A stretch of DNA of 63,784 bases, filler included, from Chrysochromulina tobinii (GCA_001275005.1; 6 parts of 6 records of this genome joined end to end with filler, not necessarily neighbours in it), one strand, 5' to 3'; positions 1-62,494 are shown, counted from the whole stretch's first letter. Made by a program: numbers and translations. Notes: generated from the letters alone by a model not told the origin.

Positions 1-3000
1 GCGCCCACGAGCACGCCTGCCGCCGCGGCGGGTGGCGCTGCTGAGCTGGAGAGCGAAGCGGAAGTGGATGCTGAGTTGATGGGATTGCTCTCCAAGCTAC
101 AGATCTCCACCAGCACGGCACGCCAATTCTCTTCATTTGGGATCGGGATGGGGGCGATGCGCTTGCTCACCGTCGGAGATATCATCGAGATGACCGGCTG
201 TGACGAAAGCGAGGCGGCCGCCATCGTGCGGGGGGTCAAGGCCGCCGATGCCGCCGCCGCCGCCGCCGCCGCTCAATCGATCTCGCTCCAACCGTCGGCG
301 AACTCCGGCATCGTTGGCAGTCACATCGATGCCGATGGGACGCCTCTCACGGCTGAGATCGTCTCGGCAGTCCTCGGCTACCCCATCGACGACTTCCAGA
401 CGCGCACCCTCGCGGTCATCGTGGACCCGGAGCGCGACCTACTCGCGATGGCGCCTACTGGCTCGGGCAAGACAGCGGTCGCTCTCCAGGCGATCATGGC
501 GGCCTTTCGGCGTGGCAAGAAGGCCGTGTACACCTCCCCCGTCAAGGCACTCTCCAACCAAAAGTACGCCGAGTTCAAGGCGTGGTTCGCCTCGCGCAAC
601 CTGAACGCGGGCGTCACGTTACTCACGGGCGACATTAAGATTCGAGCGCCGCCGGGCACCGTGGCTGAGCTCATCATCTGCACGAGTGAGATTCTGCGGA
701 ATAAGCTCGTCAAGATGGCGGGGACGGCGGCGGTGGTCGCCGATCCGGCCGTTGCAGCCGTTGGGCTCGTGGGTCAGGGCTCTGCCTCGACGATGAGCGA
801 CAATGACCTTCAGAACCTCGGGTGCGTGGTCTCCGACGAGATCCACTACATCAACGACCCGGAGCGCGGCGCGGTGTGGGAAGAGACACTGATGCACATG
901 CACCCGTCGACCCAGCTCGTCGCCCTCTCTGCCACGCTGCGCGAGCCCGAAAAGTTCCTGCAGTGGATCCGCACGACGCGTGGGCGCGACGCTGAGCTCG
1001 TCCGGAGATTTGATCGGCACGTGCCTCTCCATTTGGGCGGGCTCGAGCGCCGTCGTGGCGCCTTTGTGGAATTCTTCGGCACACACGGGGAGCGCGCTGG
1101 GGTGTTCGACATGGCCAAGTATGCGGAGCTGCGCCAAGCCATCTCTGCGCCGCCCGAGAAGGATAGCGCCGCCGCCGCCGCCGCCGCCACCAACAAGATG
1201 GATCGGGTGAATGAGAAGGCGGCCGCAAGGGCGGCCTTTGAAGGTGGGGGCGGCGGCGGGGGAGGCAAGGGGGGGCGCGGCGGTGGCGGCGGCAAGGGCG
1301 GAGGGGGCGGCAAGGGCGGAGGCGGGGGCAGCGGTGGCGGCGGGCGGGGCGGCGGCGGCTCGCACAGCAATGAGCCCTCGTATGCGTCCGAGTGCCTGCG
1401 GCTCGCGCGGGATCTTGCGGGGGGCGGCGGAGGCGTCTCAAAGATGCCTGCCATCGTCTTCGCCATGTCGCGCAAAAAAGTGCGTCGAGGGCGCGCACTG
1501 CTGCGCCTCACTCAACCTGCTCGGCGGCTACCGTCCCAAGGATCGGTTGGGGGACGACGCCACTGAGGAGGAGCGGGCGGCCTTCGAGAAGGCGGAGGCC
1601 GAGCGGCGCGCACTCGTCAAGGCCGCCCAACGAGCCCTGCACGCCATGCACCGCTCTCACTTGCAAAGGTACATGCCCGAGCTTGGTGAGCTCGAGGCGT
1701 ACACGGACGTGATGTACCTACTCGAGCGGGGTGTAGCCTACCACCACGGCGGCATGCTGCCCATCCTGCGCGAGTTTGTCGAGCTGTGCTTCCAGCAGCG
1801 ACTGGTCAAGCTCGTCTTCGCCACCGAGACGCTCGCGGTCGGTGTGAACATGCCCGCGCGCACCGTCGTGTTCACGCAGCTCGACAAGCCCAACGACACC
1901 GGAAAGCCGGGCCATCGTAACCTGCGACCGGATGAGTTCTGGCAGATGGCGGGGCGAGCGGGGCGGCGCGGGCTGGATGAGCTCGGTTACGTGATCTACT
2001 CGCCTACCCTCTCCGTGGCGGGCCTCAAGAACATGGCGAGCGCGACCGAGCTGCGCGAGATGTTGGTGGGGGCGATGCCCGCGGCCACTTCACAGCTGAG
2101 CGTGAATCGGCCGTTTGTGCTGCGTCACCTCGCGCGTGGCTATGGGCCGGAGGTGCTCAATAAGACGCTCCTCGCCGACCAGCTACGTCGGCAGACGGAG
2201 CTCTTGCAGGCTGAGATGGCTGTGGCTGTGGTCGGGGGCGGTGGCAGCGACGCTCTCCTCGACGCCGCGCGCAAGTACGCAAAGCTCGAGGCGCGTCTCC
2301 ACGGCACGAGCGCCGATCTGATTGGGCTCAACCCGAAGCAACAGAAGGCCGCCCAGGCTGAGCTGCGCCAGCTGCTTGAGCTCCACGGCGAGAGACTGAT
2401 TGCGGCGAAGAGCTCGATCGCGACGACCGAGCGGCTCACCGCCGAGATCGAGATCAATCAGTCGCTCCTGTTTCGTCAATGGCAGGAGGCCCTCGGCTGG
2501 CTGGGCGAGTACGGTTTCGTTGATGAGGCGGGATTGCTCACGCCCCGCGGACGTGCATGCGCCGCCTTCGCCGATGGCCACCCGCTCATTATCGGCACCA
2601 TCATCGCGGACGGCTGGCTCGCGCAGCTATCTCCGGGCGAGATCTGCGCGTGGCTCTGCCTCTTCCTAAAGGAGAGCCGCGGCAATGATATCTCCCAATC
2701 CGAGCTCAAGCCGCCCGAGCCGTCGGCGGCGCTCGCGGAGGTGCTTTGATGGGCACTGATCGCGTCCCTGATTGCGACCCTGATTGCGACTCCGAGTGCA
2801 AGCATCATCGCGATCCGAATTTGCGACCCAAATTGCGCCCCTATTTGCGACCCTGATTGCAGGTGCTCGCCGAGACGGACGGCCTCGCCGAGATCCTCGA
2901 GGTCGAACTTGAGCGCACCCTCATGCTGATGATGCTGGATTGGACCACCCACAAGGACATCAAACGCATCGCCGTGTGGGTCGACTCCTACATGCTCGGC

Positions 3001-3174
3001 ACCTTCGTCAAGGCCGTGATGCGCGTCGCCTCGTACATTGACGTCGTCAAGGAGGTTCTCCTCGGCCTGGGCGCGTACGAGACGCATAACAAGCTCGACA
3101 ACCACATGGACCTCCTCCTTGGGGGGTTGGTCACCAACGAGTCGCTCTACCTACGCCTCGCCGACGGCGAATGA
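1..3174 (+). CDS. Ski2/Mtr4-like DExH RNA helicase (5'-partial; apparent 1-nt frameshift; one intron)
   Basis: Motifs APTGSGKT, YTSPVKALSNQKY, DEIHY, LSAT, ATETLAVGVNMPARTVVF, QMAGRAGRRGLD and C-terminal SLYL. Frame is open from position 1. An A6 run at 1474-1479 shifts MSRKK|CVEG between ORFs 64..1566 and 1211..2749. A GT-AG intron at 2741-2862 joins ALAE|VLAETD. Confidence 0.9.
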
Positions 3175-3627: not shown

Positions 3628-6116
3628 ATGGAGTTTATCTCATCTTCCATGGTCTACTTGCCGCTCCACACACTGCTGCTCGAGGACGAGCTGCCTGTTA
3701 CCGCGGCGCCACGGCCCGAGATCCGACGATGCCGCGGCTGCCAGGCTGTGCTGCTCGTTGCCGACTACATTGGTCGTGGCGCCGGCGCAATGGATAAGGC
3801 CCTCGCGTACCATTCTTGTGGCACCTGCGCCAGCGACGAGGCCTTCGCTGCCTCGATGGTGGCCGAGTTCAAGAGCATGCTGGGATCTGGCGGCGACGAG
3901 GGCGAGCCCGACTCTGCTGCGTGCGCGCTGCCCGTCACGTGGCCCGACGGCGAGCCTCCGCTCGTGTACCTGGCGCGGGTGGGCAAGGTCGAGTGCGCCC
4001 TGAATCTGCTGCGTTCGGGCCTGGCCGCGTCCTGCGGAGGCGTGAACGCGCGCGGTCGCTTCGGCATGACCGCGCTGCACCACGCGGCCGCACGCAACGA
4101 CACGACGCTTCTTCGGACGCTCGTCGCTGAGGGAGCCTCCACCTGGCTCACCACTCAGGACGATGTCAACGCAGGCGTGACTGGCGGGCGCACACCCCTC
4201 CACGCGGCGGCGGCGGCCGGCGCGGCAGCCTCGGCGGCGTTGCTCGTGGAGCTCGATCCGATGAGCGCCGCGCGCACCGATTGGGAAGATCGGCTGCCTG
4301 CCGAGCTCGCGTGGCTCGGCGAGATCGAGGGAGCTCACGAGCTCGCAATCTCGCTCGTCGAGGCAGCGAGGCAAGCCTCTGCTGCTGACCCTCCAGCTGC
4401 GAGCGGGGAGATCGAAGGAGATCGAACGATCTTGAGCTCGATCGAGGTCGAGGTGCACGTCGACGCGATCGAGGAGACGGAGCTCAATGAGCTTGATGGC
4501 GAGCGGCAGCACGCGCGTACTCTGAGCAAAGTCGAGCTACGCGAGCGCCACCGCGCCGCCCTTGACATCGAGGCACGCCCGAGGTTGCACACAGCTCATC
4601 TGATCAAGGGCGCTTGGACTGCTGACCGGTGCGGCGCCTCTGATTGCCACTGCTCGCCACTGATGGTCTCCGATGGCGACCGATTCGAGCGTGCAGGTGC
4701 AGCCACTGATTGCAACTGATTGCCACTGATTGCCACCGATTGCCACCGATTGCCACTGATGGTCTCCGATGGCGACCGATTTGAGCGTGCAGGTGCAGCC
4801 ACTGATTGCCACTGATTGCCACTGATTGGCACTGATTGCCACTGATTGCCACTGATTGCCACTGATGGTCTCCGATGGCGACCGATTCGAGCGTGCAGGT
4901 GCAGCCACTGATTGCCACTGATTGCCACTGATTGCCACTGATTGGCACTGATTGGCACTGATAGGCACTGATTGCCACTGATGGTCTCTGATGGCGACCG
5001 ATTCGAGCGTGCAGGTGCAGCGCGCTGCTCGAGGCGGTGCGCACAGCGGCGGCTCAGTACGGCTGGTCTACTGGGCGACATAAGTACCATGCGACCATGG
5101 ACATGCCAATATGGCGCCTTACACCGCACAGCGCCGCGTGTGTGCGGACGGCTCTGGAGGACGAGGTACTGCCCGCGATGGCGCGCGTCTTTGGCATCGC
5201 TCGCGAGCGGTTGGCGCTGCGCGAGGGCTTCGTGGCCATGTATGGTACTGGAGGATGCATGCAGCGCGCGTTGGGCATGCACAAGGATGGTACGCTGCTT
5301 GCGTGCACGCTGCTGCTCAATCCGGAATCGGACTTTGATGGAGGTGGCACCACGTACGCCGCGCCTGTGCGGCTGCGCGAGTGGAGCGAGGCGGACTGGA
5401 AGGCCTCGTCGGAGTGGAAGGCGGACTTGAGCGCGCCCGTGGGAGCCATAAAACCATCGGATGACGACGGCGGCGGCGGACAGAAGACGCTGGAGGAAGC
5501 CTTGGTGCACACGGTGCCGGCCGCGATGGGCGACTTGCTCCTTCATTGTGGGCAGCTGCGCCACGGGGCCGCAGAGGTCAGTCGAGGCTACCGGTATGTG
5601 CTGGTCGCCTTCGTCGACGAGCTGCAGCTCTCTCCCGAGCGCCGTGACGAGCGCCGTGACGAGCGCCAGGGCGAGGAGGTGCAGGGCGAGGGGGCAACGG
5701 GTAAGGTGGGGCCAAATGGCTCTCCCGGCCCCATCTCGACGCCACAGCCCCCATCGGCTGCTGGCGCTGTGCCGCCACTCATGGCCCGTTCCGTCTCACT
5801 GGACGGCGGCACACCCAAGGCCACTAGCGCGCGCTCGGTGCCACGGCTGGCGAAGGCGACGTCGTTTGTGACACCCACGTCCGTAGGGGCTGCCCCCGGG
5901 GGTGAGCGCTCACCACGGCGCTCGTGTGTCTCCTTCCACGTGAGCGAGATCAGCGGGAGCTCAGTACCGGAGCGCCGTGGCAAGTTCACACTGCCGGGCG
6001 GCAAGGCGGCCTTCACACCTGGTTGGGATGAGCAGCCGAAAATTGAGGACGACGAGGCTGAGCTCAGGGCCGAGATCAACGCGGATCAAAAGAAGAAGCT
6101 CAGCTTTGGTTCGTGA
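3628..6116 (+). CDS. Ankyrin-repeat plus 2OG-Fe(II) dioxygenase (prolyl/lysyl hydroxylase-like) protein
   Basis: Ankyrin motifs GMTALHHAA and GRTPLHAAA. Removing intron 4629-5014 gives WTADR|CSALLEAVR. Oxygenase motifs HKD...DFDGGGT...RHG...RYVLVAF. Confidence 0.8.
4629..5014 (+). repeat. Compound intron of four tandem GT...AG units filled with CCACTGATTG decamers
   Basis: Units 4629-4696, 4697-4792, 4793-4898 and 4899-5014 each end GAGCGTGCAG and are followed by GTGCAG. Confidence 0.85.
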
Positions 6117-8729: not shown

Positions 8730-11700
8730 TCACTGTGCTGTGTCGGCGTCTGAGGCAGCCTTGATCCTCGTGACAAGTCCGTTGTGGATGGGCCACCAAG
8801 ACATGTCGCCCAGACCAAGCTGGCAAATGAGCTCATGGCCAAGATCAAGAGGCTCAAGCTCATCTGAAAGATGTTCTTGGTCTGGGACTGCGTCTGGCGG
8901 CAGCATGGTCAGAGTGGTGGACGGTGATTCTGGTGGTGCTTCGGGTAGCATATCCCCATGGTGCTCCTCATGCCCAGCAAACGAATTCGTAATTGCGTTC
9001 TGCTCAAAGTGCTGCTTGAAGACGAGCTGCTTGAAGACGATAATCGCATCTTTGACTTGCTTCAGCTCTGAGTCTGACTTGGCCTTCTTGTCCTCATGGC
9101 CAATGTCATCTACATCATCAGGCATGGGGCCCTGCCTCTTGCCGTAGTTGAACTGACCCTCATAAATTTTGTCACCGGTGAACGTGGCCTTGCCCTGACC
9201 GTGCATCGAGCTGTCCTCGAGGCCACCCGAGTACATGAGCATCACCTCCAGACTGTCGCTCTTGTCGCTCTCCTCATCAGCATCGGCAAGCGGCATTGCG
9301 CCCTTGCTGAAGGGGCCCTTGCATGCATGCAGCATCGCACTCTCAAGATCCTGCCTGAGGTCCTCACATTTGCGCTTGAGTGCATCACACTCTGCCTTGT
9401 GCGATCGCTTGAGTTCATCACACTCTGCCTTGTGCACATCACACTCTGTCTTGTGCGATCGCTTGAGTGCATCACACTTTGCCTTGTATGCATCACGCTC
9501 CACCTGATGGCACAGACAATGTAAGTGATGAGCAAGCTTTGTGCATCAAAATAAGTGATGAGCAAGCTTTGTGCATTCATGCATGCATGCATGTGTATGC
9601 CCAATCTCCAGTGTCCCCATGCCCAGATTGTGTGTGATGACCATTTGTCTGTTGTGGACAAGCACACAAAAGTGGTCATCAAAGGAGAAAAGTCAATGAA
9701 CCATCGGATGTCTCCACGTGAAACGGCTGCAAGAGAAGGATGGCTACCGGTGAAACGTCCATGCATGAAGAGAAAAGCAAGAGAAAGAACGAACGGAGGA
9801 AACATGTCATCAGTTTCCACTGGATGACAGTTTCCACTTGATGACAGTTTCCATATTTGTTGTGGGCCTTTCCATTGATAACTTTCTGTTGCCACTCTTA
9901 CTCGTTGTTGTTGCTGCTCAGGCTGCTCGTCACGCTGGCCATTGCGACTGCACTGAGGACTGCACTGAGGTCGCCATCGCCGGGGCGTGAAGACGACCCA
10001 CGGCTCCTCACGCCGACTATGATGCTGCCTGACGTGACTGTCACCATCACCGCTGATGGATCGACACCTGCCCGCCCCACCCCGATCGTGATTGTAGTCT
10101 TCATCGTGGTCCGCACACTCGGGGGTGAAGGAGGAGCCGTCGCTCACTGAGATTAACACTGAGATGATGGTCAGGGAGCTGTACATGATGATGTTGGGCT
10201 CACTGAGATGATGGTCAGGGAGCTGTACATGATGATGTTGGGCTCACTGAGATGATGGTCAGGGAGCTGTACATGATGATGTTGGGCGTCAGGGTCACGC
10301 TCGGAGGGGCGGTCGGGGGTGAGGGCGGTGGGGGAGGGCAGGGGAGGGGACCCGGAGGCGGCTGCGGTGGCGCCGGGCTAGGGCGGAGGCGAAGGTGGCA
10401 AGGGCTGCGGCGGGGTGAGGGAGGCGGGGTGAGGGAAGCGGCACGCGGCGGTGGTGGGGAGGGCCGGTGGTGGGGAGGGCGGCAGCGGTGGGGAGGGCGA
10501 TGGCAGTGAGGCCAAGCAGTGGCGGTGAGGGCAAGCAATGGGGAGGGTGATGGTGGTGAGGGGAGTGATGGGGACAAGGGCAGTGGGGAGGGCTATGGCG
10601 GAGGCGGATGGGGAGGGTGTGGGGAGGCAGTGAGGGCGGTGGCGGTGAGGGTAGTGAGGGTACGGTGAGAGCTGAGGTGAGGGTGATGGTCCATGGTGGT
10701 GGTGGCGACGGAGATGGTGGTGGTGGCGACGGTGACGGGGCGGCGCCGAGATGCGATCTGCCTGTGTCGTTGAGAATTTTCCATGAGCTCCCAGATGAGC
10801 AGGAGCAAGTTGTGTGAAGCCCCCATGTATGATCTCCCCAGATGTGATCTCCCCGTTGAGATGCGATTCCCCACATGCATGTGCCCACACAGAGGGTTGG
10901 GAGGGGCTGGGCACGCACCTTCAGTTCCTCGATCATGAGGTCCTTGTCGTTCTTCATGTTTGTGTCTGGCTTCAAGTGATCCGCTTTCATGGACTCGACC
11001 TCCTGCCATAAGTGATGCTCCTCCTGTGTAACCACATCCGAGCGAGGAGAGGGGGCCGATGGCGTGATCGGTGAGGGTCCAGGTCATTAAGCGTGTGGGT
11101 ATATGGGTGGCGCGCGTGCGTGCGTCATGTGTACGTGCACGGATTGAGATCACACGCACCAGCCCTGCATTGCGCTTGCCTGTACCGCCAGTGTCCTTCT
11201 CCTTCTTCTTCGCGAGACGCCGCTTGAGCAGCTCGCAGAGGCGGTTCAAGATGTCTTGGTTCTCCAGGTCGCCGATCGTCTTCGCCTTATCGCACATATC
11301 GCGAGCTAGGGATAGTGTCTGCGGGAGCGTGCACACGTTGCGCATCATAGGCGAATTAGCGACCTGAGCTCAACAGAACGGGAGGGAGCGTGCACGGGTG
11401 CGTGCGCGGCGAACGCACATCTGGTTCAATCTTCTTGATTTTCCCCTTGTACTCGTAGTTGCAGTACATCACGAGAAAATCGTAGCATTTCTCGCAGAAG
11501 GAGCCGCACTTCAGCGGCAGCACGCGCTCCTTGGCCTGTTGGGGCGTCTGCAGGCAGTGCGAGTTCGAGAAGTCAGAAAGCGCGTGCTGGGCGGGCAGTT
11601 CAGGGAAGACGCGGATGAGTGGCGGGTCGGGCGGGGCGCGCGCGCGCGTCGATGATGATCCCGCCCGGCTATGCCGCGGGCGCAGCCGCTCGAGCGCCCA

Positions 11701-11804: not shown

Positions 11805-12102
11805 GCGTTTCTCAAACTAGACAACATTTCTCCGAGACGAACCTGCAAGTTGCGTTCGTTATCACTCCCTATCAAGTTACCACCAAGTCTTCTGAATTCC
11901 ACAGCCCTGCCGGTGCAATCGGGAAAACAGCCCCAGCGACCCCGACTGCCGCTCCGGCTGGCAACAGACACAACTCCGTGAAGCGAACACAGCATTTCCG
12001 CCATGTCTCAGCGCACAACAGCCCAGCCGGGCCTCTACTTCGGCGCGACGAGCTCTGCTAGCCCGCGCCAACTTGCATCGCCGAGCCGCGTCAATGCCGT
12101 GA

Positions 12103-15100
12103 GTGCCACTCCATGGGCCGCTCTCTCCGAGCACTCCTCGCGCTCCGCCTGTGGCTACTCTTGACCTGAGCCTGCATCTCGCCCACCCTCGTTGCCCGCA
12201 GGCGCTCAACGACGGCGAGGATCTTCGTTTTAGCTTTGAGGCGGCGCGCGCTGGCGGCGAGACACCCTACTGGCAGCAGGGCCACACCGACCTTGAGTCG
12301 CCCGAAGCGCTCGCGATGCGTGCGGCGCTGCGGCAGGACGCGCGCGTGCAGCGCGAGCTCGGGCGCTTTTGGAGCGTGCACTCGAAGCTGGCCGACGGCA
12401 TGATCAGCAAGGACGAGTACCTCAAAGTGCGCGTCAAGATTGCTCTCGCGCTCATCCCGGACATGACTCCAGAAGAGGCGCGAGCTGCCGGAGAGGAGGA
12501 CTGGGTGGCGGATGCCAAGGGAGCGGACCGCATGTCGGCCGAGCAGGTGCACGACTACCTCTTCGAGCTTGCCGACCTCTGGTGCAGCGCCATCGATGGC
12601 CACGAGTACGCCGCCTTTGTTCGCAAGCTTTTCCGCCGCGTGGCCGTCAAGGTGGTGCACGGCTCCGACGGGAAGGTGAGCGTCTCTGCCCCCGCGCAGC
12701 CGTCCAGGGAGCGCAAGGAGGAGTTCGAGACGTTCCGTGACGCGCGCCGACGCAAGCTCGGCCTGCCGCCCCTCGGAGGCGATCCGATGCCCTCCGGCGC
12801 TTCGATCTCCGGCGCGAGCTCGCCAGCAGGCGGCGACGAGGAGGAGGAGGCCGAGTCGGACGGCATCGGCGAGACGGTTACGTTCGGCTGGGCGCCGGAG
12901 AGCGAAATCTACCCCTTGATCCTGTACGAGGAGGCGCCGATCGACTGGGCCGAGTACGGCGACATGAGCGTCGGTGCCAAGGGAGCGCCGCCGGTGCCAC
13001 CGCTGCCCGTCCGCACGGCTACGATGGTTCCACGCTTCCCGATGGTGCAGCGCGAGTTGCAGTCCTCCTCGTACAGCGCGAAGCTGCTGCTGCCCAAGCA
13101 GTTACTCGCCGAGGAGACGGATGCGGGCGGGAGCGCCGCCGCTCCGTCCGCCGCGCGGGCACACACAGCACGTCCCCAGGTCTCGTTCGCGGAGCTCGAG
13201 GCGCCAGAGCCGCCGGCCAGCAGCAAGCTACCGGTACGCCCGGCGAGCGCGCAGGTCTCGTCACGCAGTGGCGCGCAGCTGGCTGCCGACGGCTCCGCGG
13301 ACGATGGCGAGGCGGGCGCGGCCGAGGCGCCCGCGGCGCTCAGGGCGCCCGCGGTGGCACTGCCGGTGCCGCCTTCGATTCAGATGGGCATGCCGTACGA
13401 GAACGCGCTCGCGCTCGCGCAGCTGAGCGCGTCGTCTCGGGCGCTCGTCACGCGCCACGCCGTCGTGCGAGGGCTGCCAAAGGACCTGAAGGCTGATCTG
13501 ATGATTCCGCCCGGCAAGGGCGGCTACCTCAAGGGAGCGATCGCCCTGAGCCATGGCGGCGCGACGCCCAACAAGAAGGCGCCGCCGCCGCCTTCGCCGC
13601 TAGCGCTGCCGTCTCGTTCGAGCAGCGGGCGCTCGATGATGCCGCCGCCCGCGGAGCCAGACATGCACCCCGGCCTCCTCGCCGTCGCCACCGCGTGCGC
13701 CGCCACGCTCGCCTCCGCCAAAGGTGCCGGCCGGGATGCGCCCGATACGGCGCTCTCGGCGACGGCGGCCAAGGACGCGGTGAGTGCGGTCGAGCCGCCG
13801 CGTGAGGGAGTCATGCCGCTGCCGCTCCCTCGCCTCGCCCCTGAGCCCTGCGGAGAGCTCGCGCTTCTGCTCGGGAGCGCGCGCACCAATCCGAAGCCAC
13901 GCCACGTGCTCCTCGCTGGCCCGCCGCTGCTGTCCGAGCCGCTCGCGACTGCGCTCGCGTCCGCGCTCGGCGCAGTGCTCGTGTCGCCGACGGCGGCGGT
14001 CATGGCCGCGTCCAAGGGCGACGATCCGCTCGCCAACGTGCTCCGGAACGCCCTGAGCGCCGGCCTCACGATCGGCCGGGCCGAGCAAAAGGAGGCGCTG
14101 CTGCAGCTGCTGGCGAGCCCCGAGGCCCAGGCGCGGGGCACGGTCCTCTTCGGGCTGACAAGCGACGCGGTCACAGCGGCCAACGGCACGCCGCCCACGG
14201 CGACCCTCGCGGTCGTGATGGCCGCGGACGAGCTCGCTGCTTGGAAGGAGGAGGCTGAGGCCGCTGCCGCCGCCGCGGCGGCACCCAAGCCCCTCGCAGA
14301 GGGGGACGAAGCGGAGGAGGCGCCGCCGCCGCCGGCCGAGGACCCTGATGCACCGCCACCGCTGCCGCCGCCGCCGCCGATGAGCCTGGCGCCCAACCCA
14401 CTGCCGCAGGACGACTCCGACAAGGCCGCCCAGCTTGCCGACGCCGCCCTGCTCCACGGCCAGCTGCCCGCGCCCGAGCTGCTCGACGCGGCGCTCGTGG
14501 CGCTCGGCTTGCCGCCGCGCGTGCGTCGAGCGCTCGCGGTAGCGCTCCCGGCCGAGGCGGCCGAGCAGCCGCGCGCGGAGCAGCTCGAGGTGCTCAAGAC
14601 AGCGGGCGGCGCGTTGTTCGCGGCCGCATGCCCGCGCTACGTCGCACCGGGCACCGCGCCCGAGGATGCGCCGCCGCCGCCGCCCCTCGCCCTGTCGGCA
14701 TGGGGGACGAGCTGCCCAGTGAGCCTCGCGTCGGGGGCGCTCGACACGGCGCTCGGCCTTGGAGCGCCCTTGGAGGGCAGCACCAGTTGCGCGGCGGCCT
14801 TCGACGGCCGATTGTATTTGTGTGCGGCTCCGGAGCAGCTGAGCGCCTTCCTCGGCAGCCCGTCGACCTTCCTCGCGGCGCCGCCACAGCTGCGCTCGAC
14901 GACGCGGCTCGCTGTGCTAGGCCCGCCTCTCTCTGGCGCCTCCGCCATCGCGGGGTCCCTCGCCGCCTCGCGCCGTGTCGAGCGGATTTCATTGGCCTCG
15001 CTGCCCGCGCGGCTGCTCGGGCGCGCTGATGCCAAGGGCGCCGAGCTCGCGCAGGCGCTGAGCGCGGCGAGCGGCGGCGGCGGCAGGGCGGCGCCACCCC

Positions 15101-18387: not shown

Positions 18388-19140
18388 TTGAGCCCTGGGC
18401 GCCACGACAACTCGACAGGAAACTCGACAGCTACTCGACAGCTACTCCTACTGCTCGACAGGATTTAGCCTTTTTTAGCCTTGGATTTAGCTCAACAGCT
18501 ACTCGACAGACCTCGACAGACCTCGAGCACAGAACCCCCCCTGATCCAACCCTAAATCCAACCCCCCCCTGACATCTCCATGTGGAGCCGGGGCGAGTTC
18601 AACCCGGAGTTCAACTAGCTGTCAAGCTCGACAACTACTCGACAGCTCGACAGTGACCTCGACTCGTCCTCGACAGACCTGTGCTCGACACGAAACTCGA
18701 CAGCTCGACAGCTACTCGACGCGCCGGCACATGGAGATGTCAGCCTGTCGACAGGCTCGACAGGAACTCGAGACTCGACAGGAACTCGACAGGTACTCGA
18801 CAGGAACTCGACAGGCTCGACAAGGCTCCATACCAGTTGATCCTCGATCCACTTGGCACCCGCGTGTCCACATCCATGTTCCATTCAAGTACCTCAACTC
18901 GAAGCTCGCTGTCGACAGGCCGTATACTAGTATGATCTGGAACATGGATGGACATGGAACATGTGGACACGCGGGTGCCAAGTGGATCGAGGATCAACTG
19001 GTATGGAGCCTTGTCGACGCGCCGGCACATGGAGATGTCAGCCTCGACAGGCTCGACAGGAACTCGACAGGAACTCGACAGGAACTCGACAGGCTCGAGT
19101 AGCTGTCGAGCTGTCGAGTTTCGTCTTTCGTGTCGACACA
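18388..19140 (+). mobile_element. TCGAC-rich non-autonomous foldback/MITE-like repeat
   Basis: Dense CTCGACAG arrays and a perfect 57-bp inverted repeat (18817-18873 / 18961-19017). The terminus tgagccctgg...acaactcgacaggaaactcgacagctactcgacag is shared with the copy at 30455-30670. Confidence 0.7.
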
Positions 19141-30454: not shown

Positions 30455-30670
30455 GTGTCGAGGTCTGTCGAGGTCTGTCGAGGTCTGTCGAGCTGTCGAG
30501 CTGTCGAGCTTGACACTTGACGCCGCCGTCGCATGGAGTCAGGGGTAAGTCAGGGGGGTTCTGTCGAGGTCTGTCGAGGTCTGTCGAGGTCTGTCGAGTA
30601 GCTGTCAAGCTACATGTAGCCTGTCGAGTAGCTGTCGAGTTTCCTGTCGAGTTGTCGAGGCCAGGGCTCA
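30455..30670 (-). mobile_element. Second, shorter copy of the TCGAC-rich repeat family, inverted
   Basis: The reverse complement begins tgagccctggcctcgacaactcgacaggaaactcgacagctactcgacag and contains cagaacccccctga, matching 18388-18545. Confidence 0.75.
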
Positions 30671-32446: not shown

Positions 32447-32448
32447 AA

Positions 32449-49367: not shown

Positions 49368-49552
49368 ATGGTGTCCCCTTTCGATCGCGTGGCCGCCGAC
49401 GAGATCCACCAGATCCTGACGCTAACTGGCATGACGGGGCTTTGCGTCGTCTTGCCACGCGTGTCGAAGGAGATGAAAGCCCATGCCGCCGCGGCGCTCT
49501 GCAGCATGGAGCACATTGAGATTTCAGCATACGATTCTGTTTGGCATTCTAG
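49368..49552 (+). pseudogene. F-box-like 5' gene fragment fused to a retrotransposon
   Basis: MVSPFDRVAADEIHQILTLTGMTGLCVVLPRVSKEM resembles an F-box. The sequence switches abruptly to copia RT at 49553. Confidence 0.5.
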
Positions 49553-52500
49553 CATGATCGCACGCGTGGACAAACCAATATACGGCATCCAGCAGGCCGG
49601 CCGCCGCCTCCAACGCAAGCTCTTCGACTGGCTGCGCGCCAAGGGCTTCCAGGCGCTCGACGATTCCGACCCTTGCGTCTTCAAGCTCACGTGCGTCAGC
49701 GGCGAGATCCTCACCATTGGCGTCCCCTCGCTGCGACCGGGGACCCACACTATGGCCGCGGCCGTGGCCGTGGCCGCGGCCGCGGCCGCGGCTCTGGCCG
49801 CGGCGAACAAGTACCGCGCGTCGAGCCTCCGCGCGACGCGGACGGCCGCATCACCCACTGGATCGCGGGCATGGTGTGGGCATCGCGGGCGTGGCATCAC
49901 CCTGCTCCACGTGCAAGCAAAACCACCTCCACCGCGATTGCCCAAAGTGGGTAGACTCGACATCAAAGCGAAGGCGCCGACCACCATGGCACAAGCGATC
50001 GAGTACGTTGACGCGATCCTCAAGACCAATGTTCGCATCGCCGAACTCGACACGATCAACAACGGCTCGGTCGGCGCCGCCCTCGCCGCAACGCGGGCCG
50101 CAGAAGACACACGCGTCGCCGAGCTCGAGGCTCGCGTCGCACAGCTCGCTGCCCTCGCTGCGACCGGGGACCCACACTATGGCCGCGGCCGTGGCCGTGG
50201 CCGCGGCCGCGGCCGCGGCTCTGGCCGCGGCGAACAACCGCGCGTCGAGCCTCCGCGCGACGCGGACGGCCGCATCACCCACTGGATCGCGGGCATGGCA
50301 CCCTGCTCCACGTGCAAGCAAAACCACCTCCACCGCGATTGCCCAAAGTGGGTAGCCGAGCAAGCCGCCAAAGAGGCGACCAACGCGACCGCGCAAGCCA
50401 AGAAGGAAACCGCGCCGCTCGAGGCACGCGTATTCGAGTGCGACGGACTCGACGAGACCAACCTGGCCGCCCTCCTCGGCACCGTCTTCCCGGACACATC
50501 GGTGCATAAGGGGGGCCCGACGGGACCGGTACCGAGTCCGGAGCAAGAGGCCGAACAGGCGGGACCGGAGGTGGACCTTAACGATTTCTTCACCTATTCG
50601 CGCGTCCTACCGGTACCAGACGACCTTCCAATTTCGGGCGATTTTCTTCGCGATGCAAAATTCTCTTGCATCCAAGGAATCGCACCGAATCTTGCCCCTA
50701 TTTGGAAAGGAGGCGCAAGCAGTACGCCAACGCAACAAATTTCGCAATTGGCCGAGCAGCCCACCGTGGATAGTTGCGACTCTCGCCCGTCACCTTGCAA
50801 CTCTTATCCATTCCCGCCGCCGCCAAATCCTTCGCCAACGCCCAGCCTGCTCACCGCTCTCGTCGCAAACCCTTCTCCGCCATCGCCAAAACGCTTGAAA
50901 GCCACAATCCAGCCGACCTGCGAAGAACCGACCGGTGGCCGCATCATCAGCGGCGCCGTCGACTCGGGGTGCACTGGGCACGTCACGCCCAACCCACACT
51001 GGCTCGTCAACCGCCGCCCGTGCACTGACACGTTCCGTGCAGCCGCCGGCTCCAAACACGTCGCCGCCGAAATCGGCGACATGCCCGTAATTGCTCGCGA
51101 CAGACACGGAGGGCTCCACTACAAACTCATCACGAACGTGCGTTGCGTGCCTACCTTCGCGTACACGCTCCTCTCCGTCGGCCAACTCTGGCTTGAGCTC
51201 AAAATTGACTCGCTCTTCGCGGACAGCCTCTGCTGCCGTCTCCACGACGGTACCGAGCTTCCCTATGTACGCGAGAAGCAACTGCCGACGCTGCTACTCG
51301 TCAGTGTCGCCGGCTGTGACCCCGACGCCATCGCTCGCAGCACCACCCGCAGCACCGCGCAATCCTCACCAACCATCACCGCCCTCACGCTCACCAGCAT
51401 CTCCGCTGCCCCACCCAACCCTGCCCCTGCCTCGAATACGTCGGGCCTCTCGACCAGGCACCTCGGACACCACTCTGTCCACTCCTCCGCGCACATCGCT
51501 CGACTGCCGGCTGCCCAAGCCGGCGAGCTCATGCATCGACGCTGCCACGCCAGCTTGCGCTACATCCAGGCCATCGCCAACACCACCGCCGACGGCCCTC
51601 GCAACGTCGCCTCCGCTCCCGCCATCAACTGCGCCAGCTGCGCCGAGGCTCGCATCACCCAAGCCGCGCACCGCGGCACCCTTTCGACGCCAGCTCCCGA
51701 GGCCGGCGTTCTCCACGTTGACCTCAAGGAAATGGTCATCTCCGCCGAGGGCTTCCGCTACTTCCTCGTCGCCGTTGACGAATTCACGAGATTCATCTTT
51801 ATTGCCTTCCTCAAATACAAGTCCGAGGCCGGCGCCGAGCTGCTCGCCATCGTGAACAAATTTAACGCCACGGTTGGCACCCCCGTCGACGCCGATGGCC
51901 GGGCCCTGCTACGGCCTCGCGTGCGCACCCTCCACTCTGACCGCGAAGGCAAGCTCATCTCGCACTCGTTCCGCTCGGCGCGGACCTCCGCGGGCCTTCA
52001 TCACACGCTCAGCCCTCCGCACGACCACGACCTCAACCCTATCGCAGAACGGGCTATCCGCACCCTCGCCGAGACCGCCTCCGCCATCAGGGTCGCTTCC
52101 AATGTGTCCGCGCGCCATTGGCCGCACATCATCGCGTACGCCGCCGACTGGCACAACTCACTCATCGGCTCCGTCGGCTCCTCCACCGCCGACAGCAATA
52201 TCACGCCTTACCAGCGCTTCACGCTCCGCCCGCCTCGTGTCATGGACCTTGCTACCTTTGGCTGCCGCGCATTCGCCCTCAAACCGCCGCATCTCCAGCA
52301 CAAGCCCAGCCTCGACGGCCGCGGGCGCGAGGGCGCCTTCTTAGGCCGCTCCCTCAACTCAAAAGGATGTTACGACGTCCTCGTCGGGAGCGGCGCCGCA
52401 GCTTACGTCATCAGCTCCTCCAGCGTTGTCCTCGACGAGGAGTGGATGCCGCTGCATCCAGTCGGCAAACAACACCGGCCACTCACCTCGCTCGCACACG

Positions 52501-54498
52501 CTGCCCACCCGCCGCAGCTCCCCAGCCTAGAGGCTGACTTTCCCAATGACAGTGCTGCTGTCGCTCGCCCCCCAGCCTTCGACGCGCGCCTGCAATTCGC
52601 TGCGGAGTCTCGGAGTTCCCTCCCCATGCCTCTCGACCACGCGAACTCACAACAGCGCGATTCGCCCTCAGCGGCGGGCGGGGCCTCGCCTTCGCCGGCG
52701 CCCTCGCCACTCCCTCCGCCCGACAGCCCCACAGCCCCCATACGTCGCCTCGTCTTCCCCGACCTAACCGCCGCGACTAGCCCCCGCAGCGAAGCCCTCT
52801 CATGGAAGCTTGCCGGCCAGGAGGCCTCTGCCGCCTTACGAGAGCATGAACGTGCACTGCTCCCCCCACGACGGCCCCCGGGCGCCACCGTCAACTACTT
52901 CCCCAAACAGCCGACCCACCGCCCATTCGGCCCCAAATGGCTCCCGGCAGTCTCCGATGCACCTATTCGAGCCGTCCCGGTGGTAGCGCCTGAGCTCGAG
53001 CCTCCCCCGACTCTCGAACCCATTCCAGAATCGCCCACCGCTGAGGACTCTTATGAGCCATATGAGCCTGCCTCGCCTCTGGCGGCCGCCATGCGGCACG
53101 AGGAGATGCTCGGCGCCCGCGCGGCGCTCCACGCTTACCTCGACGGCTACCTCGAAGCCGCTCTTGCCCACCGCCATAGCGCCAGCCCGCCGCCTCGCCC
53201 CTCGTCTGCCTCCTCCTTGGAGGCCGCCGTCGCCGAGTCCATTTACGACGCGCACCATCGACGGCCTGTCGCAGGCACTCTCGAGATACCCATCTCCGAA
53301 TGGCGCAACGTCCCCAAGGTCCCGTTTGGCAAGAGCCCCGGCGACCACGCGCTCTTCCTCGACATCGCGCTCGACGAGCACGACTTCAAATCGCCCGACA
53401 CCATACTCGACGGCATCCGCGCCAGCTTCCTCACCGCGCTCCGCGCCGACTCGCCCGACGCACCCGCAACGCACTCAGAGGCTGTCAAACGTGGCGACGT
53501 CTGGATGCGCGCCGAGGCCAAAGAGCTAGCAAACCACGAAGCCAACGGCTCCTGGACGTTTGTGCGCCGTGCTGACGTGCCAGCCGGCCGCCGTATCCAC
53601 CGCCTCATATGGGTCTACAAGGTCAAGCGCGACGGCACCTGCAAAGCCCGCCTGTGCGTCCAGGGCTCCACCCTCGAACCCGGAGTCGACTACGACCAAG
53701 TCTTCTCGGCCGCCCTCCGCTACTCATCGGCGCGCTCACTCTTCGCCTTCGCGGCCAAGACAGGCTGCCGTGTACGCAGCGTCGACCTCGTTGCCGCCTA
53801 CCTGCAGGGCGATTTCCTCGACGGTGAAGTTGTGTACTGCCACGCGGCACACGGCTACCCCAAGTACGATGAGCACGGCGAGCCCATGATCGCACGCGTG
53901 GACAAACCAATATACGGCATCCAGCAGGCCGGCCGCCGCCTCCAACGCAAGCTCTTCGACTGGCTGCGCGCCAAGGGCTTCCAGGCGCTCGACGATTCCG
54001 ACCCTTGCGTCTTCAAGCTCACGTGCGTCAGCGGCGAGATCCTCACCATTGGCGTCTACGTTGACAACCTCCAGATCGTGCACTCAGTCGAACTTGATGC
54101 ACAAGGTCGCGGACCCGCCGGCTGCGCGTACAACAAGTTCATGGACGACCTCCAACGCGAATGGACAGTCACCGACGAGGGCGACATGGAGGACTTGCTT
54201 GGCATCGAAGTCGAGCGCTTCAGTGACGGCTCAATCAAGCTCCACCAGACTAAGTACATCAACAAGGTCATCGAGCGCTTCCTACCCAACGGCCCATCGT
54301 CCCACGTCCAGCGTAACTCCATGCCCTACTCGTCCCTCTTCGAGACTCGGATGAAAGACGCGCTTGCTCTTGACGCCGGCACCTATCCCGACCTTATCAC
54401 CACATTCCAGCAGCGCATCGGATGCCTCATGTACGCGGCCACCTCTACACGGCCTGACATCGCATATCCTGTCCATCAGCTCTGCAAGTGCCTGCAAC
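49553..54498 (+). mobile_element. Ty1/copia LTR-retrotransposon gag-pol (5' rearranged, 3' cut by gap)
   Basis: Zn knuckle CSTCKQNHLHRDC, protease VDSGCTGH, integrase HVDL/VDEFTR/HSDREG/NPIAER, then RT WVYKVK...KARLCVQG, YGIQQAG, YVDN, TRPDIAY. Order is PR-INT-RT. No LTR visible. Confidence 0.93.
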
Positions 54499-56203: not shown

Positions 56204-56513
56204 ATCTGCGCGGTACCACGAAGGATGCTAGAATCCAAAAGCTTGCACGCGTCCACACGTCGATTCGGCACCGATACGCACGCTCCCTCTTTCGCGCGTC
56301 GGCCACGTGGCCGGGAAAACTTGGTGCGAGTCAAGACAAGTCGAGTATTCTCACGCTCACACGCTACAGTTGTACGCGCATGCACAGGATTGCATCTTTT
56401 TCATGATGGACCAAACTCGAAGCACCGTTACTCCTTTTGGCCGCCTTCGGTGAGGGACACGCAACACTTTCGGCTTTTGCGAGAGCGCGCCATCTTTCCT
56501 GACGCTCGCAATA

Positions 56514-57798: not shown

Positions 57799-60700
57799 AT
57801 GGGAGGCGAGGGCCGCACGAGGAAGCTCGCCGCGGGGATGACCAAGGACGACATCCCGCGCATCATCAAGGAACTCAAGAGCGCTCCTCAGGACGGCAAG
57901 GAGAAGTCCGCGTACCTGCTCGACATCATGGCCGAGCAGGAGGAGAACGTCAAGGCGATGGTGAAGGCGGGCGCGATCGGGCCGCTCGTGGAACTCGTCG
58001 CCTCGGGCAATGACGGCGGCCAAATCCACGCCTGCTCCACTCTCGCGCAGATCGCGCTCGCGGAGACCGACTTCACGTCAGAGGGGAATCCGCGTGATGC
58101 GATCGTGCTCGCAGGGGCGATCACGCCGCTCGTGAGCGTGCTGCGCAGCGGCTCGGAGAAGGCGCAGATGCACGCCGCCGCCGCCCTCGCCTCCCTCTCT
58201 GAGGACCCAGAGAACCAGATGCCCATCATCAAGGCCGGCGCGATCGCGCCGCTCGTCCGCCTACTCCGCGTTGGGACTGACGATGCCAAGATCTCAGCGG
58301 CCGACTGCGTGGCGAACGTGTCGGCGGCGAATATGGAGGCGCAGGCGGCCGTGCATGCGGCGGGCGCCGTCCCACTCTTGCTCGAGATGCTCAAGGGAGG
58401 CAAGGCGCAGCAAGCGGCTGCCAACGCCCTCGCGAAGCTTCTCTGGCCAGGTGATGACCCCTGATGACATATCTGATGACCGCTGATGACCGCTGATGAC
58501 CGCTGATGACCCCTCGGAATATTGCATGCTCGCCCTCGCGCCTCGCTGCTCTGGCCAGGTGATGACCCCTGATGACCGCTGATGACCGCTGATGACCGCT
58601 GATGACCGCTGATGACCGCTGATGACCCCTCGAATTGCATGCTCACCCTCGCGCCTCGCTGCTCTGGCCAGGCCCGGACCTCTCTCTTGCGGCCAACGTG
58701 GCCATCCAGCTATCGATCCTGGAGCAGGGCGGCATCGCACCGCTCCTCGCTCTGCTCAACGGCGTGTCGGATAAGGCGCAGGTCTCCGCCGCCGAAGCAC
58801 TCTCCCATGATGACCTCTGATGACCGCTGATGGCCGCTGATGACAAGGCACCGGTCTCGGCTGCCGAAGCGCTTCTCTCATATGGCTGACCCGCCTGGCA
58901 TGCAAGTGCTCACTACGGCGCTTCACACACCCGATTCACAGGTCTCCGCCGCCCGAAGCGCTCTCCAATGTGGCACGGAGCAACGTGGACACCCAATCGG
59001 AGATCGCCAGGGCGGGGGGGCATCGGGCCCCTCCTCGCCATCGTCACCTCCCGCAACCCAAACGCGCAGGCACATGATGACCCCTGATGACCCCTGATGA
59101 CCCCTGATGACCCCTGATGACCCCTCGAAGGGCGGCAAGCTCACCCTATCCCGCAACCCACACGCCTAGGCCCGAGGCGCGAGCGCCCGAGTGCTCACCA
59201 CGACGCCTCGCTGCTTCCCCACAGGCCCAAGGCGCGAGCGCTCTAGCACAGCTCTCCCGATTCAACCGTGACAACCAGGACTCTGTGGCGCGTGCTGGGG
59301 GCATCAAGCTACTCGTAGAGCTGCTCGCGCCCCACCACCCTCTCGACGTCCAGGTGGGTGCCGCTGATGACTCACCTGATGACCCTTGATGAGCACTGAT
59401 GCCTCCTGACGACCCTGCACACCCCTGGATGGCCACTTTCATTGCATGCGCGGCCCTCCCGACGTGCAGGCCATGGCCGCTCTCGCTGTGGCCTCTGATG
59501 ACCTCTGATAACCTCTGATGACCTCTGATGACCTCTGATGACCTCCCTCATCAGGCCATGGCCGCTGTGACCTCTGATAACCTCTGATGACCTCTGATGA
59601 CCTCTAATGACCGCTGATGACCTCTGTTGACCTCCCTCATCAGGCCATGGCCGCTCTCGCTGTGACCGAGATCAGCCGCAACAACTTCGCCAACCAGACC
59701 GCGTGTGCCGACAACGGGGCCATCGGCTCGCTCGTGGCGCAGCTGCGCCTGAGCGGCGCGAGGGGTGCCCGAGATGCACTCTCCCGAGATGCACTCTCCC
59801 GAGATGCACTCTCCCGAGATGCAATCTCCCCGGCGGTGCCAGGCACGGAGGAAGTGAAGGCAGAGGCGGCGGGCGCGATCTGGGTCCTCTCCGAAGGGCA
59901 CGTCGAGAACAAGATCGCCATCGCCAGCGCCGGTGGCATCGCGCCGACGGTGAGCTTGCCTTGGGAGAGGCTCATGATTACGGGCGGAGCCGTCGATCGC
60001 ACCATGATTGCACCCTGATTACGCCATGATCGCGCCATGATTGCGCCACGATTACGGGCGGAGCCGTCGATCGCACCATGATTGCACCCTGATTACGCCA
60101 TGATCGCGCCATGATTGCGCCACGATTACGGGCGGAGCCGTCGATCGCACCATGATTGCACCCTGATTACGCCATGATCGCGCCATGATTGCGCCACGAT
60201 TACGGGCGGAGCCGTCGATCGCACCATGATTGCACCCTGATTACGCCATGATCGCGCCATGATTGCGCCACGATTACGGGCGGAGCCGTCGATCGCACCA
60301 TGATTGCCAGTGGACGCCCGCCGAGTTTGATATGGACGTCCCTAATTTGGCAGGTGAGCCTGCTCGAGACGGGCGGAGCCCGGGCCCAATTGCATGCAGC
60401 GAACGCGCTCGCGTCGCTGGGCTTCCAGAACATCGACAACCAGCGCCAGATGTCGATGCTGCTGGTGAGTCTCCTCGGCACTGGGGGCGTTGAGGGCGCC
60501 GTGACGGGCACCGAGGCGACAGCGAGGGCTGGACGGTCGACGGAGGCCAAGTCGAACGCCGCCGCAGCGCTCTGGCGCCTAGTGCGTGAAAACCCGAACT
60601 CGATCGAGGAGGTGCGATCTCCCTTGATGAGCACTGATTGCTTGACTGAATGGCGCCTAGTGCGTGAAAACCCGAACTCGATTGAGGAGGTGCGATCTCC

Positions 60701-62494
60701 CTTGATGAGCACTGATTGCTTGACTGAATGGCGCCTAGTGCGTGAAAACCCGAACTCGATTGAGGAGGTGTGTGTGCGCGTGGCCTCTGAGGACCTCTGA
60801 CTGACTTTTGATGACCTCTGACGACATCTGACGACATCTGACGACATCTGACGACCTCTGACCCTCTGATTGCATCCCTAATCAGGTGGCCAAGGCGGGT
60901 CCGACCTCCGATCTGATCTTCCTCCTCAAGCACGGCACGACCGAGGCGCGCGCGTACGCCCTCTGGTCGCTCTCGCTCTCAATTACGGAGAGCAATCAGA
61001 AGACGCTACTCGATGAGGACGGCGTCGAGCCGCTCGTTAAGTCGTTACACTCGCCCGTACAGGTGACGGCCACTGATGACCACTGATGACCGCTGATGAC
61101 CGCTGATGACCGCTGATGACCGCTGATGACCGCCGATGACCGATGATGACCGCTGATGACCGCTGATGACCTCTCTCATTGCATGCGCCCCACTCGCCCG
61201 TCCAGATCACGAGGCAGCAAGCGGCCGCCGCCCTCGCGAGCCTCGTCAAGAACAATGCGAAGGCGCAGATTGCAGTCGCATCCAAAGGCGGGATTGAACC
61301 TCTCATCAAGATCATCTCCGCACCGGCGCCGTCTCCTCCTGCGCTGCCACCCTCAGCGCACGAAGAAGCGGAGGCGCAGTTGCCTAATATGGGCACGCCC
61401 CCAAAACAGCTCACCCCTACCGTCGACCTCACAGTGCAGCTGGTGACCGAAGAGGATACGATGGACTCGAAGCAGTGCGCCGCCGCCGCCGCGCTCTCTG
61501 ACCTCTGCCTTGCATGCGAGTGCTCACCACGGCGCGACCTCCTCCCTTCCCACAGGTACGCCGCCGCCGCGCTCTCCGACCTCGCCCTCGTCGCCGCCAA
61601 CCGCGACGAGGTGGTCGAAAAGAACGGCATAATGCCGCTGGTCAGTTTGCTGACCGTCGCCGACAACGAGGGCAAACTCCTTGCCGACAAGGCCAAAAAG
61701 TTCGCCGCGGCGGCGCTCGCGCGACTAGCGGATGGTCATCAGCAGACTGCGGCCGACATTGCCCAGGTGCCCAACTGATTGCCTCCCTCATCCAACTGAT
61801 TGCCCGCTGGGTACAGGCGGGGGCCCTCCTCCCACTGATGACCTCTTGATTGACTCGTGATTGCCTCCCTCATTAGGCGGGCGCCATCCCCCACCTCTTG
61901 ATGACCTCTTTTGACTCGTGATTGCCTCCCTCATCAGGCGGGCGCCATCCCCCACCTCGTCGGTCTGCTCGACGGCACGTGTGGGGACCCGGCCCAGGAG
62001 GAGGCCGCTGGTGCCCTCTTCTCTCTCGCGGACGACAACTCGAACCGGCTCGCGATCACCGAGGCTGGCGGCATCGGGCCTCTCGTCGAGTTGCTCGGCA
62101 GCCGTAACTCGCGCGCTCGCAAGCATGCGGAGGTGGGACTGCTCCCCTGTCACTGATTGCATGCGGAGGTCACTGATTGCATGCGGAGGTGGGACTGCTC
62201 CCCCGTCACTGATTGCCAGTGAGCTCAGCCCTAATTTGGGCAGTGAGCTCGGCCCTAATTTGGGCAAGTCGCCCTCTCCGATGACCTCCCTGATGACCTC
62301 CCAATGACCTCCCTAATGACCTCCCTGATGACCTCCCAATGACCTCCCTAATGACCTCCCTGATGACCTCCCAATGACCTCCCTAATGACCTCCCTGATG
62401 ACCTCCCGATGACCTCCCTAATGAGTCCTTAATGGCAGGGCGCCCTCGTACGTCTCTCCCTCGAGTCCGCCAACCGCGCTCTCATCATCAAGAA
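57799..62494 (+). CDS. Armadillo-repeat (Vac8-like) protein with about 11 introns; 3'-partial
   Basis: Repeated AGAIxPLVxLL...AAxALxxL. Hand-placed introns: 58451-58671, 58782-58941, 59070-59224, 59354-59643, 59756-59842, 59950-60353, 60612-60885, 61063-61205, 61475-61555, 61767-61937, 62133-62438. Two homopolymer +1 errors (about 58953 and 59017) are needed to keep frame. Confidence 0.85.
59976..60307 (+). repeat. Intronic 74-bp minisatellite, about 4.5 copies
   Basis: Unit gattacgggcggagccgtcgatcgcaccatgattgcaccctgattacgccatgatcgcgccatgattgcgccac. Confidence 0.9.

Follow-up and report, generated by a model that had tools for sequence, protein, structure and literature searches.

Exon copies and shared filler in the introns

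The window analysed here, a stretch of 63,784 nucleotides (nt) from Chrysochromulina tobinii (GCA_001275005.1), carries eukaryotic genes at a GC content of 53-75% (2-kb bins), and most of the introns catalogued in it combine a filler shared with introns of other genes and copies of the flanking exons. The host genes include helicase, ankyrin-repeat, kinase, TruD and GH47 genes and the 5' part of an armadillo-repeat (ARM) gene (57799-62494, + strand), in which ten such introns interrupt a spliced frame of 829 amino acids without a stop. A preliminary description of this sequence had spoken of a window-wide intron-generating system. The system does recur in several genes and contigs, but the window consists of six contigs joined by N spacers and so samples the genome rather than one locus. 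Our catalogue holds 23 window introns, 17 with filler and 6 plain, and 14 filler introns from related loci; the two classes were assigned by eye prior to the statistics, and all counts below rest on these 31 filler and 6 plain introns. Among the related loci, L001 is a wild allele of the ARM gene and L002-L005 are four other assemblies carrying it; the L001 alleles, the L005 alleles of two L003 introns and one L005 intron with unclear ends (11916-12178) were left out of the counts.

The six repeats quoted in the preliminary description were all located in the sequence. Three are exact, with lengths of 7 nt (2739-2745 and 2861-2867), 16 nt (15832-15847 and 15917-15932) and 25 nt (34683-34707 and 34759-34783). 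The start of the minus-strand intron 42855-42935 is a copy over 39 aligned nt with one mismatch and a 3-nt gap; 39 nt at 60573-60611 are copied with one mismatch at 60651-60689 and once more at 60729-60767; and a 15-nt repeat with one mismatch joins 61048-61062 to 61191-61205. Over the 31 filler introns the end-anchored match between intron and flanking exon has a median of 10 nt and a range of 3-29 nt, and gapped exon copies reach 11-43 nt, which bears out the variable duplication length claimed earlier. Matches of 10 nt or more occurred in 16 of the 31 (8 of the 17 in the window) as against 26 of 930 mismatched intron/flank pairs, and the mean match of 11.3 nt compares with 4.67 for mismatched pairs and with 5.86 for the top of 3000 permutations. 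The identity between intron ends and exons, for which a null had been proposed as a check, is thus far above permutation expectation; in the 6 plain introns the match was only 0-2 nt.

In many introns the copies also hold a splice site, as had been suggested. All 31 filler introns, but just 1/6 plain ones, have a splice dinucleotide that recurs in the flanking exon. In 17/31 a site used in splicing falls inside an exon copy with 8 or more matched nt, compared with 26/930 mismatched pairs. The upstream exon ends in AG at 22 of the 31 sites, a preference for which splicing itself selects. At all nine sites without that AG the donor comes from a downstream-exon copy (4-18 matched nt), and the donor dinucleotide is repeated in 9/9 of these introns versus 11/22 of those with upstream AG (Fisher p=0.012). 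Phase 0 was found in 19/31. Mismatches between copy and exon fall on codon positions 1, 2 and 3 in the ratio 7:5:15, a pattern that fits ordinary drift after duplication. We considered and rejected a diverged coding allele or cDNA as the source of the copies: the third-position share (15/27) exceeds one third (p=0.014) but not the one half expected from drift (p=0.35).

The filler introns are built from modules. One kind begins with a donor filler and ends with a copy of the upstream exon end, and another begins with a copy of the downstream exon start and ends with an acceptor filler; in some introns, such as 15841-15925, both splice sites lie inside the copy. Stacks of two to five modules are common, and inside four window introns (starting at 34468, 58782, 59070 and 59354) the spliced junction is itself copied, over 29-43 nt. 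Arrays of 10-12 nt and a small number of short cores make up the filler. One of the cores, core A (15864-15904, + strand), is 41 nt long and differs by one mismatch from 34707-34747, in a different gene on a different contig. Every filler intron matches an intron of another gene in the sense orientation (31/31), with no antisense or shuffled matches. The similarity is partial rather than end to end; it persists after arrays and exon copies are masked, reaching 40/41 nt across contigs. Filler sharing showed no same-gene preference (p=0.76), and spread from neighbouring introns, hinted at by ARM introns 1 and 3, is therefore unsupported overall. In DNA run X1, 68 contigs followed the filler as far as the acceptor at 59555 and diverged into other sequence beyond it, so that this filler family is widespread in the genome and has a sharp end at many loci. 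The absence of terminal inverted repeats (TIRs) noted in the preliminary description held in the 31 filler introns, with a mean score of 3.42 against 3.30 for mismatched ends. Inspected by eye, the filler had no poly(A), and the 10-12-nt arrays lay inside it or at its variable end. A structured RNA was considered and rejected: a 10-nt palindrome sits at the start of core A (15880-15889), but the filler gave no fold signal, and no Rfam match was found within the window. Repeats of 10-11 bp are reportedly enriched in Emiliania introns; a search for this returned no paper.

The ARM gene shows the full range of these arrangements; the top named match of its exon is a Chrysochromulina tobinii protein at 51% identity, which together with the freshwater metatranscriptomes that carry the RNA makes a freshwater haptophyte the likely host. 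All its introns lie on the + strand. Intron 1 (58451-58671) has two modules, each ending with an upstream-exon copy, and is reduced to one module (73 nt) in L001. The donor of intron 2 (58782-58941) is a 28-nt downstream-exon copy, followed by an inner degenerate junction copy and core A; intron 3 (59070-59224), of GC-AG type, holds a 43-nt spliced-junction copy between two fillers. Intron 4 (59354-59643) stacks modules of 116, 85 and 89 nt and has an inner 37-nt junction copy, and L001 carries a different 343-nt stack at this place. At intron 5 (59950-60353) the donor copies 9/10 nt of the downstream exon, and a 74-nt array is present in 4.5 copies. Intron 6 (60612-60885) comprises two 78-nt units, each of 39 nt filler and a 39-nt upstream-exon copy, and then a 118-nt module. 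The acceptor of intron 7 (61063-61205) lies within a 15-nt upstream-exon copy, and the donor of intron 8 (61475-61555, 81 nt, with core A) within a downstream-exon copy. Modules of 50, 60 and 61 nt with two downstream-exon copies form intron 9 (61767-61937), and short upstream-exon copies with repeat filler form intron 10 (62133-62438).

Comparable introns interrupt the other genes. A GT-AG intron of the DEAD/Ski2-type helicase gene (2741-2862, + strand) has a 7-nt duplication spanning both splice sites and a 12-nt repeat filler. That of the ankyrin-repeat gene (4629-5014, +, GT-AG) is a stack of near-identical modules, each starting with a short downstream-exon copy; its excision would restore the frame and its retention would bring in six stops. 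The GC-AG intron 15841-15925 (+) is a simple case, with a perfect 16-nt duplication holding both splice sites, a 69-nt filler containing core A and a frame that excision would restore. In the kinase gene the 294-nt composite GT-AG intron 34468-34761 (+) contains modules of 61, 157 and 76 nt and an inner 35-nt spliced-junction copy. Its last module (34686-34761) pairs a perfect copy of the downstream exon start with core A; this module does not repeat the intron end before it, and 40/41 nt of its core agree with an intron on another contig. The TruD gene has a GT-AG intron (41194-41357, +) of three diverged modules (50, 52 and 62 nt), each beginning with a downstream-exon copy, and its removal would restore the frame. 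Two further core A copies at a 54-nt spacing (40521-40612, +) lie in frame within TruD without an acceptor end; they are apparently exonic, have no RNA joint listed and are possibly an unspliced, protein-tolerated counterpart of the introns.

On the minus strand, a predicted 81-nt GT-AG intron after the GH47 domain (42855-42935) starts with its 39-nt downstream-exon copy and continues into core A; its length is a multiple of three without stops, so that it could be retained in frame. A second GT-AG intron of 81 nt (43076-43156) lies inside the GH47 domain, with Pfam profile positions 149-412 before it and 416-455 after it, and contains core A. Four single-module core A introns (42855-42935, 43076-43156, 61475-61555 and 11665-11745 of L005) are exactly 81 nt long, divisible by three and free of stops, and their exon copies range from none to 39 nt.

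Splicing, alleles and homologues

RNA contigs from freshwater metatranscriptomes of separate studies (X12, X13 and X17) supply the evidence for splicing. Joints were found at 58440>58662 in X17, removing 58451-58671; at 61059>61203 in X12, removing 61063-61205; at 61474>61556 in X12 and X13, removing 61475-61555; at 61763>61935 in X12 and X13, removing 61767-61937; and at 34464>34759 in X13, removing the 294-nt intron 34468-34761. In record 16 of X13, 242 letters stand between 58791 and 59641, the exact remainder after excision of ARM introns 2-4. The RNA check proposed in the preliminary description thus gave five introns joined directly and three fitted by exact length. Two introns were also redrawn. 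The interval 34686-34761, given earlier as an intron, was not seen as a separate RNA joint and is an inner module of the RNA-defined 34468-34761, and 60612-60689 appears to be the first unit of the larger intron 60612-60885; both are only parts because the introns are module stacks, some with inner junction copies. RNA pieces halt with letters left over at the outer ends of 59950-60353, 60612-60885 and 62133-62438, the joints not being listed: for intron 5 one stops at 59948, for intron 6 those on the two sides reach 60609 and resume at 60884, carrying 39 and 33 letters beyond these points, and for intron 10 they stop at 62130. For 41194-41357, 42855-42935 and 43076-43156 no joint is listed, and the RNA cover there is too thin to be evidence either way. 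Two RNA contigs begin inside introns, at 58614 and 34735, and cover 58614-58671 and 34735-34761 at a depth like that of exons and may represent retained introns, pre-mRNA or DNA.

Excision restores the reading frame, as had been claimed. The 829-residue ARM frame is open and shows no indel at a junction relative to its best homologue, provided that two single bases absent from all of L001-L005 are left out; these bases, at 58952 and 59014, are likely assembly errors. At the helicase intron, splicing keeps the alignment to eight homologues. A further probable assembly error is a homopolymer run at about 1472-1479, where the helicase frame shifts.

The ARM gene could be followed through alleles and distant homologues. 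L003-L005 are identical to the window across all ten introns and L002 over the part that it covers, and these assemblies are probably from the same strain as the window. The wild allele L001, with 1.2% exon divergence (15/1293), has the same five covered intron positions and the same exon copies with changes of its own. A homologue represented by L006-L008 (49.6% identical) runs in one frame through all the positions and lacks 10/10 of the introns; L011 lacks all four of the positions compared, and the paralogue L009 lacks 9/10 and bears filler introns of its own elsewhere. Since these homologues are only 45-50% identical, they point to gain after divergence, not to recent gain. The comparison of orthologues suggested earlier therefore speaks for gain as far as the distant homologues go; the wild allele keeps 5/5 positions, and one position, at codon 296, is shared with L009.

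Alleles differ inside the introns. Three additional units, each an exon end joined to an intron start, are present in L003 and L004 but missing from L005, and the module number of ARM introns 1 and 4 differs between the window and L001. Because alleles differ by whole junction-spanning units, some long copies are secondary tandem duplications: the long copies demonstrably arose in part after intron birth, and the view that every exon copy is a birth scar had to be given up. From about 11430, L005 shows a duplicated intron end and exon start and then a jump to an apparently later armadillo part, and is rearranged or chimeric.

Source searches and neighbouring features

Searches for a carrier of the filler gave little. 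Two filler patterns had 0 matches in the viral_contigs set, arguing against a viral origin or carriage. A prokaryote source was rejected, the matches in bacterial DNA (L012-L014 and L016) looking like chance; L015 and L017, in bacterial metagenome-assembled genomes (MAGs), carry the same filler but look eukaryotic and are likely binning contamination. No Rep transposase was found among the 15 window exons scanned with Pfam. The only reverse transcriptase found in the window is that of a Copia-type open reading frame (ORF; RVT_2), which has no link to the filler; this polyprotein ORF (integrase and RVT_2; 49368-54497, + strand) is cut by a contig end and has an internal repeat near 49732-49930 and 50160-50350. 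Intergenic clusters of 10-11-nt repeats of one family lie in opposite orientations at 18400-19130 and 30450-30660, and might be the ends of DNA elements.

Intron 59950-60353 ends in an AT-rich motif of 10 nt that is also found within coding sequence, in the coding orientation and mostly in the same frame, with 13 matches in all (window 29143, 29161, 34174, 50696 and 61383; L003; L005 12604; L009 3586 and 9634); the recurrences are possibly exonised intron ends, with one reverse case in L017. Near-perfect exonic tandem repeats with periods divisible by three occur at 26376-26555, 33625-33773, 40759-40884, 41609-41886 and 59768-59830, and wild alleles carry fewer copies at two of these five. A long intronless ORF (36862-38400, - strand) with an 84-nt repeat array has high RNA depth from many similar contigs and probably belongs to a large repeat-protein family.

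Known systems and the origin of the introns

The introns agree with introners in the broad sense in being spliced out and in resembling introns at unrelated loci (31/31). A miniature-transposon (MITE-type) introner would have TIRs and a short, fixed target-site duplication (TSD), and the present introns have neither. Non-LTR elements and short interspersed elements (SINEs) leave variable TSDs, have one fixed and one truncated end, and bear a poly(A) or repeat tail at the fixed end. The duplications here are likewise variable and one family has a sharp acceptor-side end (68 contigs), but both ends vary where the duplication gives both splice sites, and poly(A) is missing.

Published systems are compared here as they are described in the consulted parts of the cited texts. 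The closest are the introners of marine Chrysochromulina MAGs (Gozashti et al. 2022), listed with a TSD and no TIR, the TSD being 4 bp in the example given (10.1101/2022.06.06.494994; PMC9860276 Supplementary Tables 5, 6). Like the present introns, they likely come from the same algal group, are short family introns in many genes and have one splice site co-opted from the TSD. Unlike in that example, the copies here, which can stand on one side or on both, range from the bare consensus up to about 40 nt, only short cores and 10-12-nt arrays are similar between introns, and modules are stacked at one junction. The two sets are told apart by their descriptions, not by consensus sequences. The introner-like elements of Polarella glacialis and Symbiodinium, with a fixed TSD of 3-8 nt per class (10.1101/2020.10.14.339549), share a donor, acceptor or both drawn from the TSD, GC donors and a bias to phase 0; however, Symbiodinium elements have inverted repeats and several dinoflagellate classes work in both orientations, whereas ours lack TIRs, are sense only and vary in duplication length. 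Replitron-1 of Chlamydomonas reinhardtii, considered here with Replitron-N1, has a variable TSD at RG sites, no TSDs were found in other Replitron families, and one Replitron locus is reported in C. tobinii (PMC10288648). Replitron-1 resembles the present system in lacking TIRs, in its orientation specificity and in its variable TSD, being copied in with one fuzzy end and a TSD that includes the RG. Replitron-1 and Replitron-N1 measure 0.9-3.6 kb, have 6-bp terminal direct repeats and are not reported to make introns in the text examined; unlike Replitron-1 sites, 9/31 sites here lack an upstream AG, and no transposase was found in the scanned window exons.

New introns of Daphnia and Drosophila are flanked by direct repeats that overlap the splice sites (PMC2809761, PMC3296678), as are those here, but they are scattered single events whose filler is of unknown or mitochondrial origin, as opposed to a shared family in 17/23 window introns. 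The 'mirages' of amphioxus are minisatellite-like duplications of exon-intron boundaries, 5' or 3', that vary between haplotypes and keep normal splicing (PMC3087553). A subset of our introns resembles them, with boundary-spanning tandem units that vary in number between L003/L004 and L005 and between the window and L001; since a mirage repeats nothing but its own junction, it leaves the cross-gene filler and the copies that act as working sites unexplained. A 2025 introner survey lists non-LTR, Helitron and other introners without naming haptophytes in its main text, and the 2024 preprint of the latest survey left about 72% of introner elements unclassifiable. The consulted parts of PMC11282704, PMC4580454 and PMC12480563 held nothing further bearing on these introns. 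The literature searched yielded no account of haptophyte introns with long duplications of variable length; it did not take in most subscription papers or parts of the 2022 and 2025 supplements, where the family may be listed. The introns are not a new category, variable duplications being known from Replitron-1 and break repair and TIR-less introners with a 4-bp duplication from Chrysochromulina; what is new within introner-type gain is the long variable exon copies, overlaid by the known mirage duplication.

Tentatively, at somewhat under an even chance, we favour the reading that these introns arose when a short mobile sequence encoding no protein was copied into a staggered cut, leaving a variable duplication of the flanking exon beside the gene-shared filler. 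At a nicked target, part of an existing filler intron would be inserted by copying in trans, exactly joined at one end and shortened at the other, and the second strand would be opened a few to about 40 bases away, producing the target duplication. Only insertions whose duplication or filler supplied GT or GC and AG in register would survive, some perhaps tolerated first as in-frame inserts, and the junction would go on drawing new modules and slipping into junction-spanning tandem duplications, giving stacks. Copying, cutting and the enzyme responsible are inferred; by anatomy, either a non-LTR reverse transcriptase or an HUH (Replitron/Helitron-type) transposase would suit. For simple cases (introns starting at 15841, 42855, 59950, 61063 and 61475) a footprint of birth is the better reading: a later duplication of an old junction leaves the old splice sites outermost and does not explain why the outermost site is the copy. 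The sense-only filler lends no support to an RNA route as such, since splicing selects for sense.

Several observations count against this reading. The conserved cores are short (about 20-41 nt), and a variable tract lies between core A and the acceptor; both filler ends vary in introns that draw both splice sites from the duplication; the filler showed no stable RNA fold (z -1.95 to +2.25); and no autonomous partner element was found in the window. Eleven of the 31 introns match the exon over fewer than 7 nt at their true ends, a length that the AG|G consensus alone accounts for (six of them contain an inner copy), and four show no clear junction copy at the ends or inside (43076-43156; 11495-11611 and 12207-12365 of L003; 9003-9225 of L009). 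The intron position common to the gene and L009, at codon 296, could be ancestral or have been gained in parallel. The alleles showed no presence/absence polymorphism, so no birth event was caught, and the post-birth tandem duplications described above account for part of the long copies.

The preliminary description had taken variable duplications without TIRs to point away from a mobile element and towards repair. Replitron-1 duplications vary too, and the filler families cross contigs, so that this step does not hold; repair or template switching nevertheless stays a live rival to an element-driven route. Breaks would be patched by host end joining with templated filler, spliceable patches would be selected, and the filler family would grow by feedback without a dedicated enzyme. 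We consider this unlikely, although it would account for the variable duplication length, the filler ends that both vary in some introns, the short shared letters seen by eye at joints of filler and copy, and a genome rich in plain tandem duplications, exons included, that vary between alleles, and it has its precedent in the Daphnia and Drosophila introns. The filler there has no genomic source or is mitochondrial, whereas here it belongs to families across contigs in 31/31; shared families without same-gene preference are not predicted by plain repair with random filler, templates show no bias to nearby sequence, and one family end is sharp at many loci. A TIR-less introner with a short duplication, of the 4-bp Chrysochromulina type, could instead have spread first, the long copies coming later through mirage duplication and through partial gene conversion by spliced cDNA, a process able to put exon sequence in place of an old intron end. 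That TSD-bearing, TIR-less introners are listed for the marine MAGs lends this plausibility, as do the unit differences between L003/L004 and L005, the module numbers of introns 1 and 4, the 11/31 introns with end repeats of consensus length only, and the simple core A introns of 81 nt whatever their copy length, as if the copy had replaced part of a fixed-length element. We give it an equally small share of belief: the copy is the working site in 17/31, yet simple duplication would keep the old donor or acceptor outermost; the last module of 34468-34761 does not repeat the intron end before it; and in L005, rearranged or chimeric downstream of about 11520, the single unit could be a collapsed repeat.

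An assembly artefact or a chance match to the splice consensus is very improbable and largely refuted. Identity is 99-100% within several arrays, and single-base errors occur in the window, but L002-L005 agree with the window, the copies recur in L001 with changes peculiar to it, the introns are spliced out in RNA contigs of separate studies, and the permutation null is far exceeded.

The origin of new spliceosomal introns is still an open question, and this alga keeps unusually long footprints at most sampled introns. Intron interiors change fast between alleles just 1.2% apart in exons, freshwater RNA and DNA data exist, and comparing populations could catch intron births and separate element insertion from host repair. 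Module stacks and GC donors lead to wrong gene models, a warning for annotation, and such families would probably escape screens built on a fixed TSD or on end-to-end similarity. A rather improbable variant of the copying route deserves mention for what it would mean: an excised intron RNA, its AG end paired at a nicked AG|G, may be reverse-transcribed into the chromosome, which would yield truncated sense-only copies, long variable duplications and re-targeting of junctions. If true, self-copying of this kind would mean that RNA-templated intron transposition occurs naturally across a whole genome and leaves a footprint that can be read.

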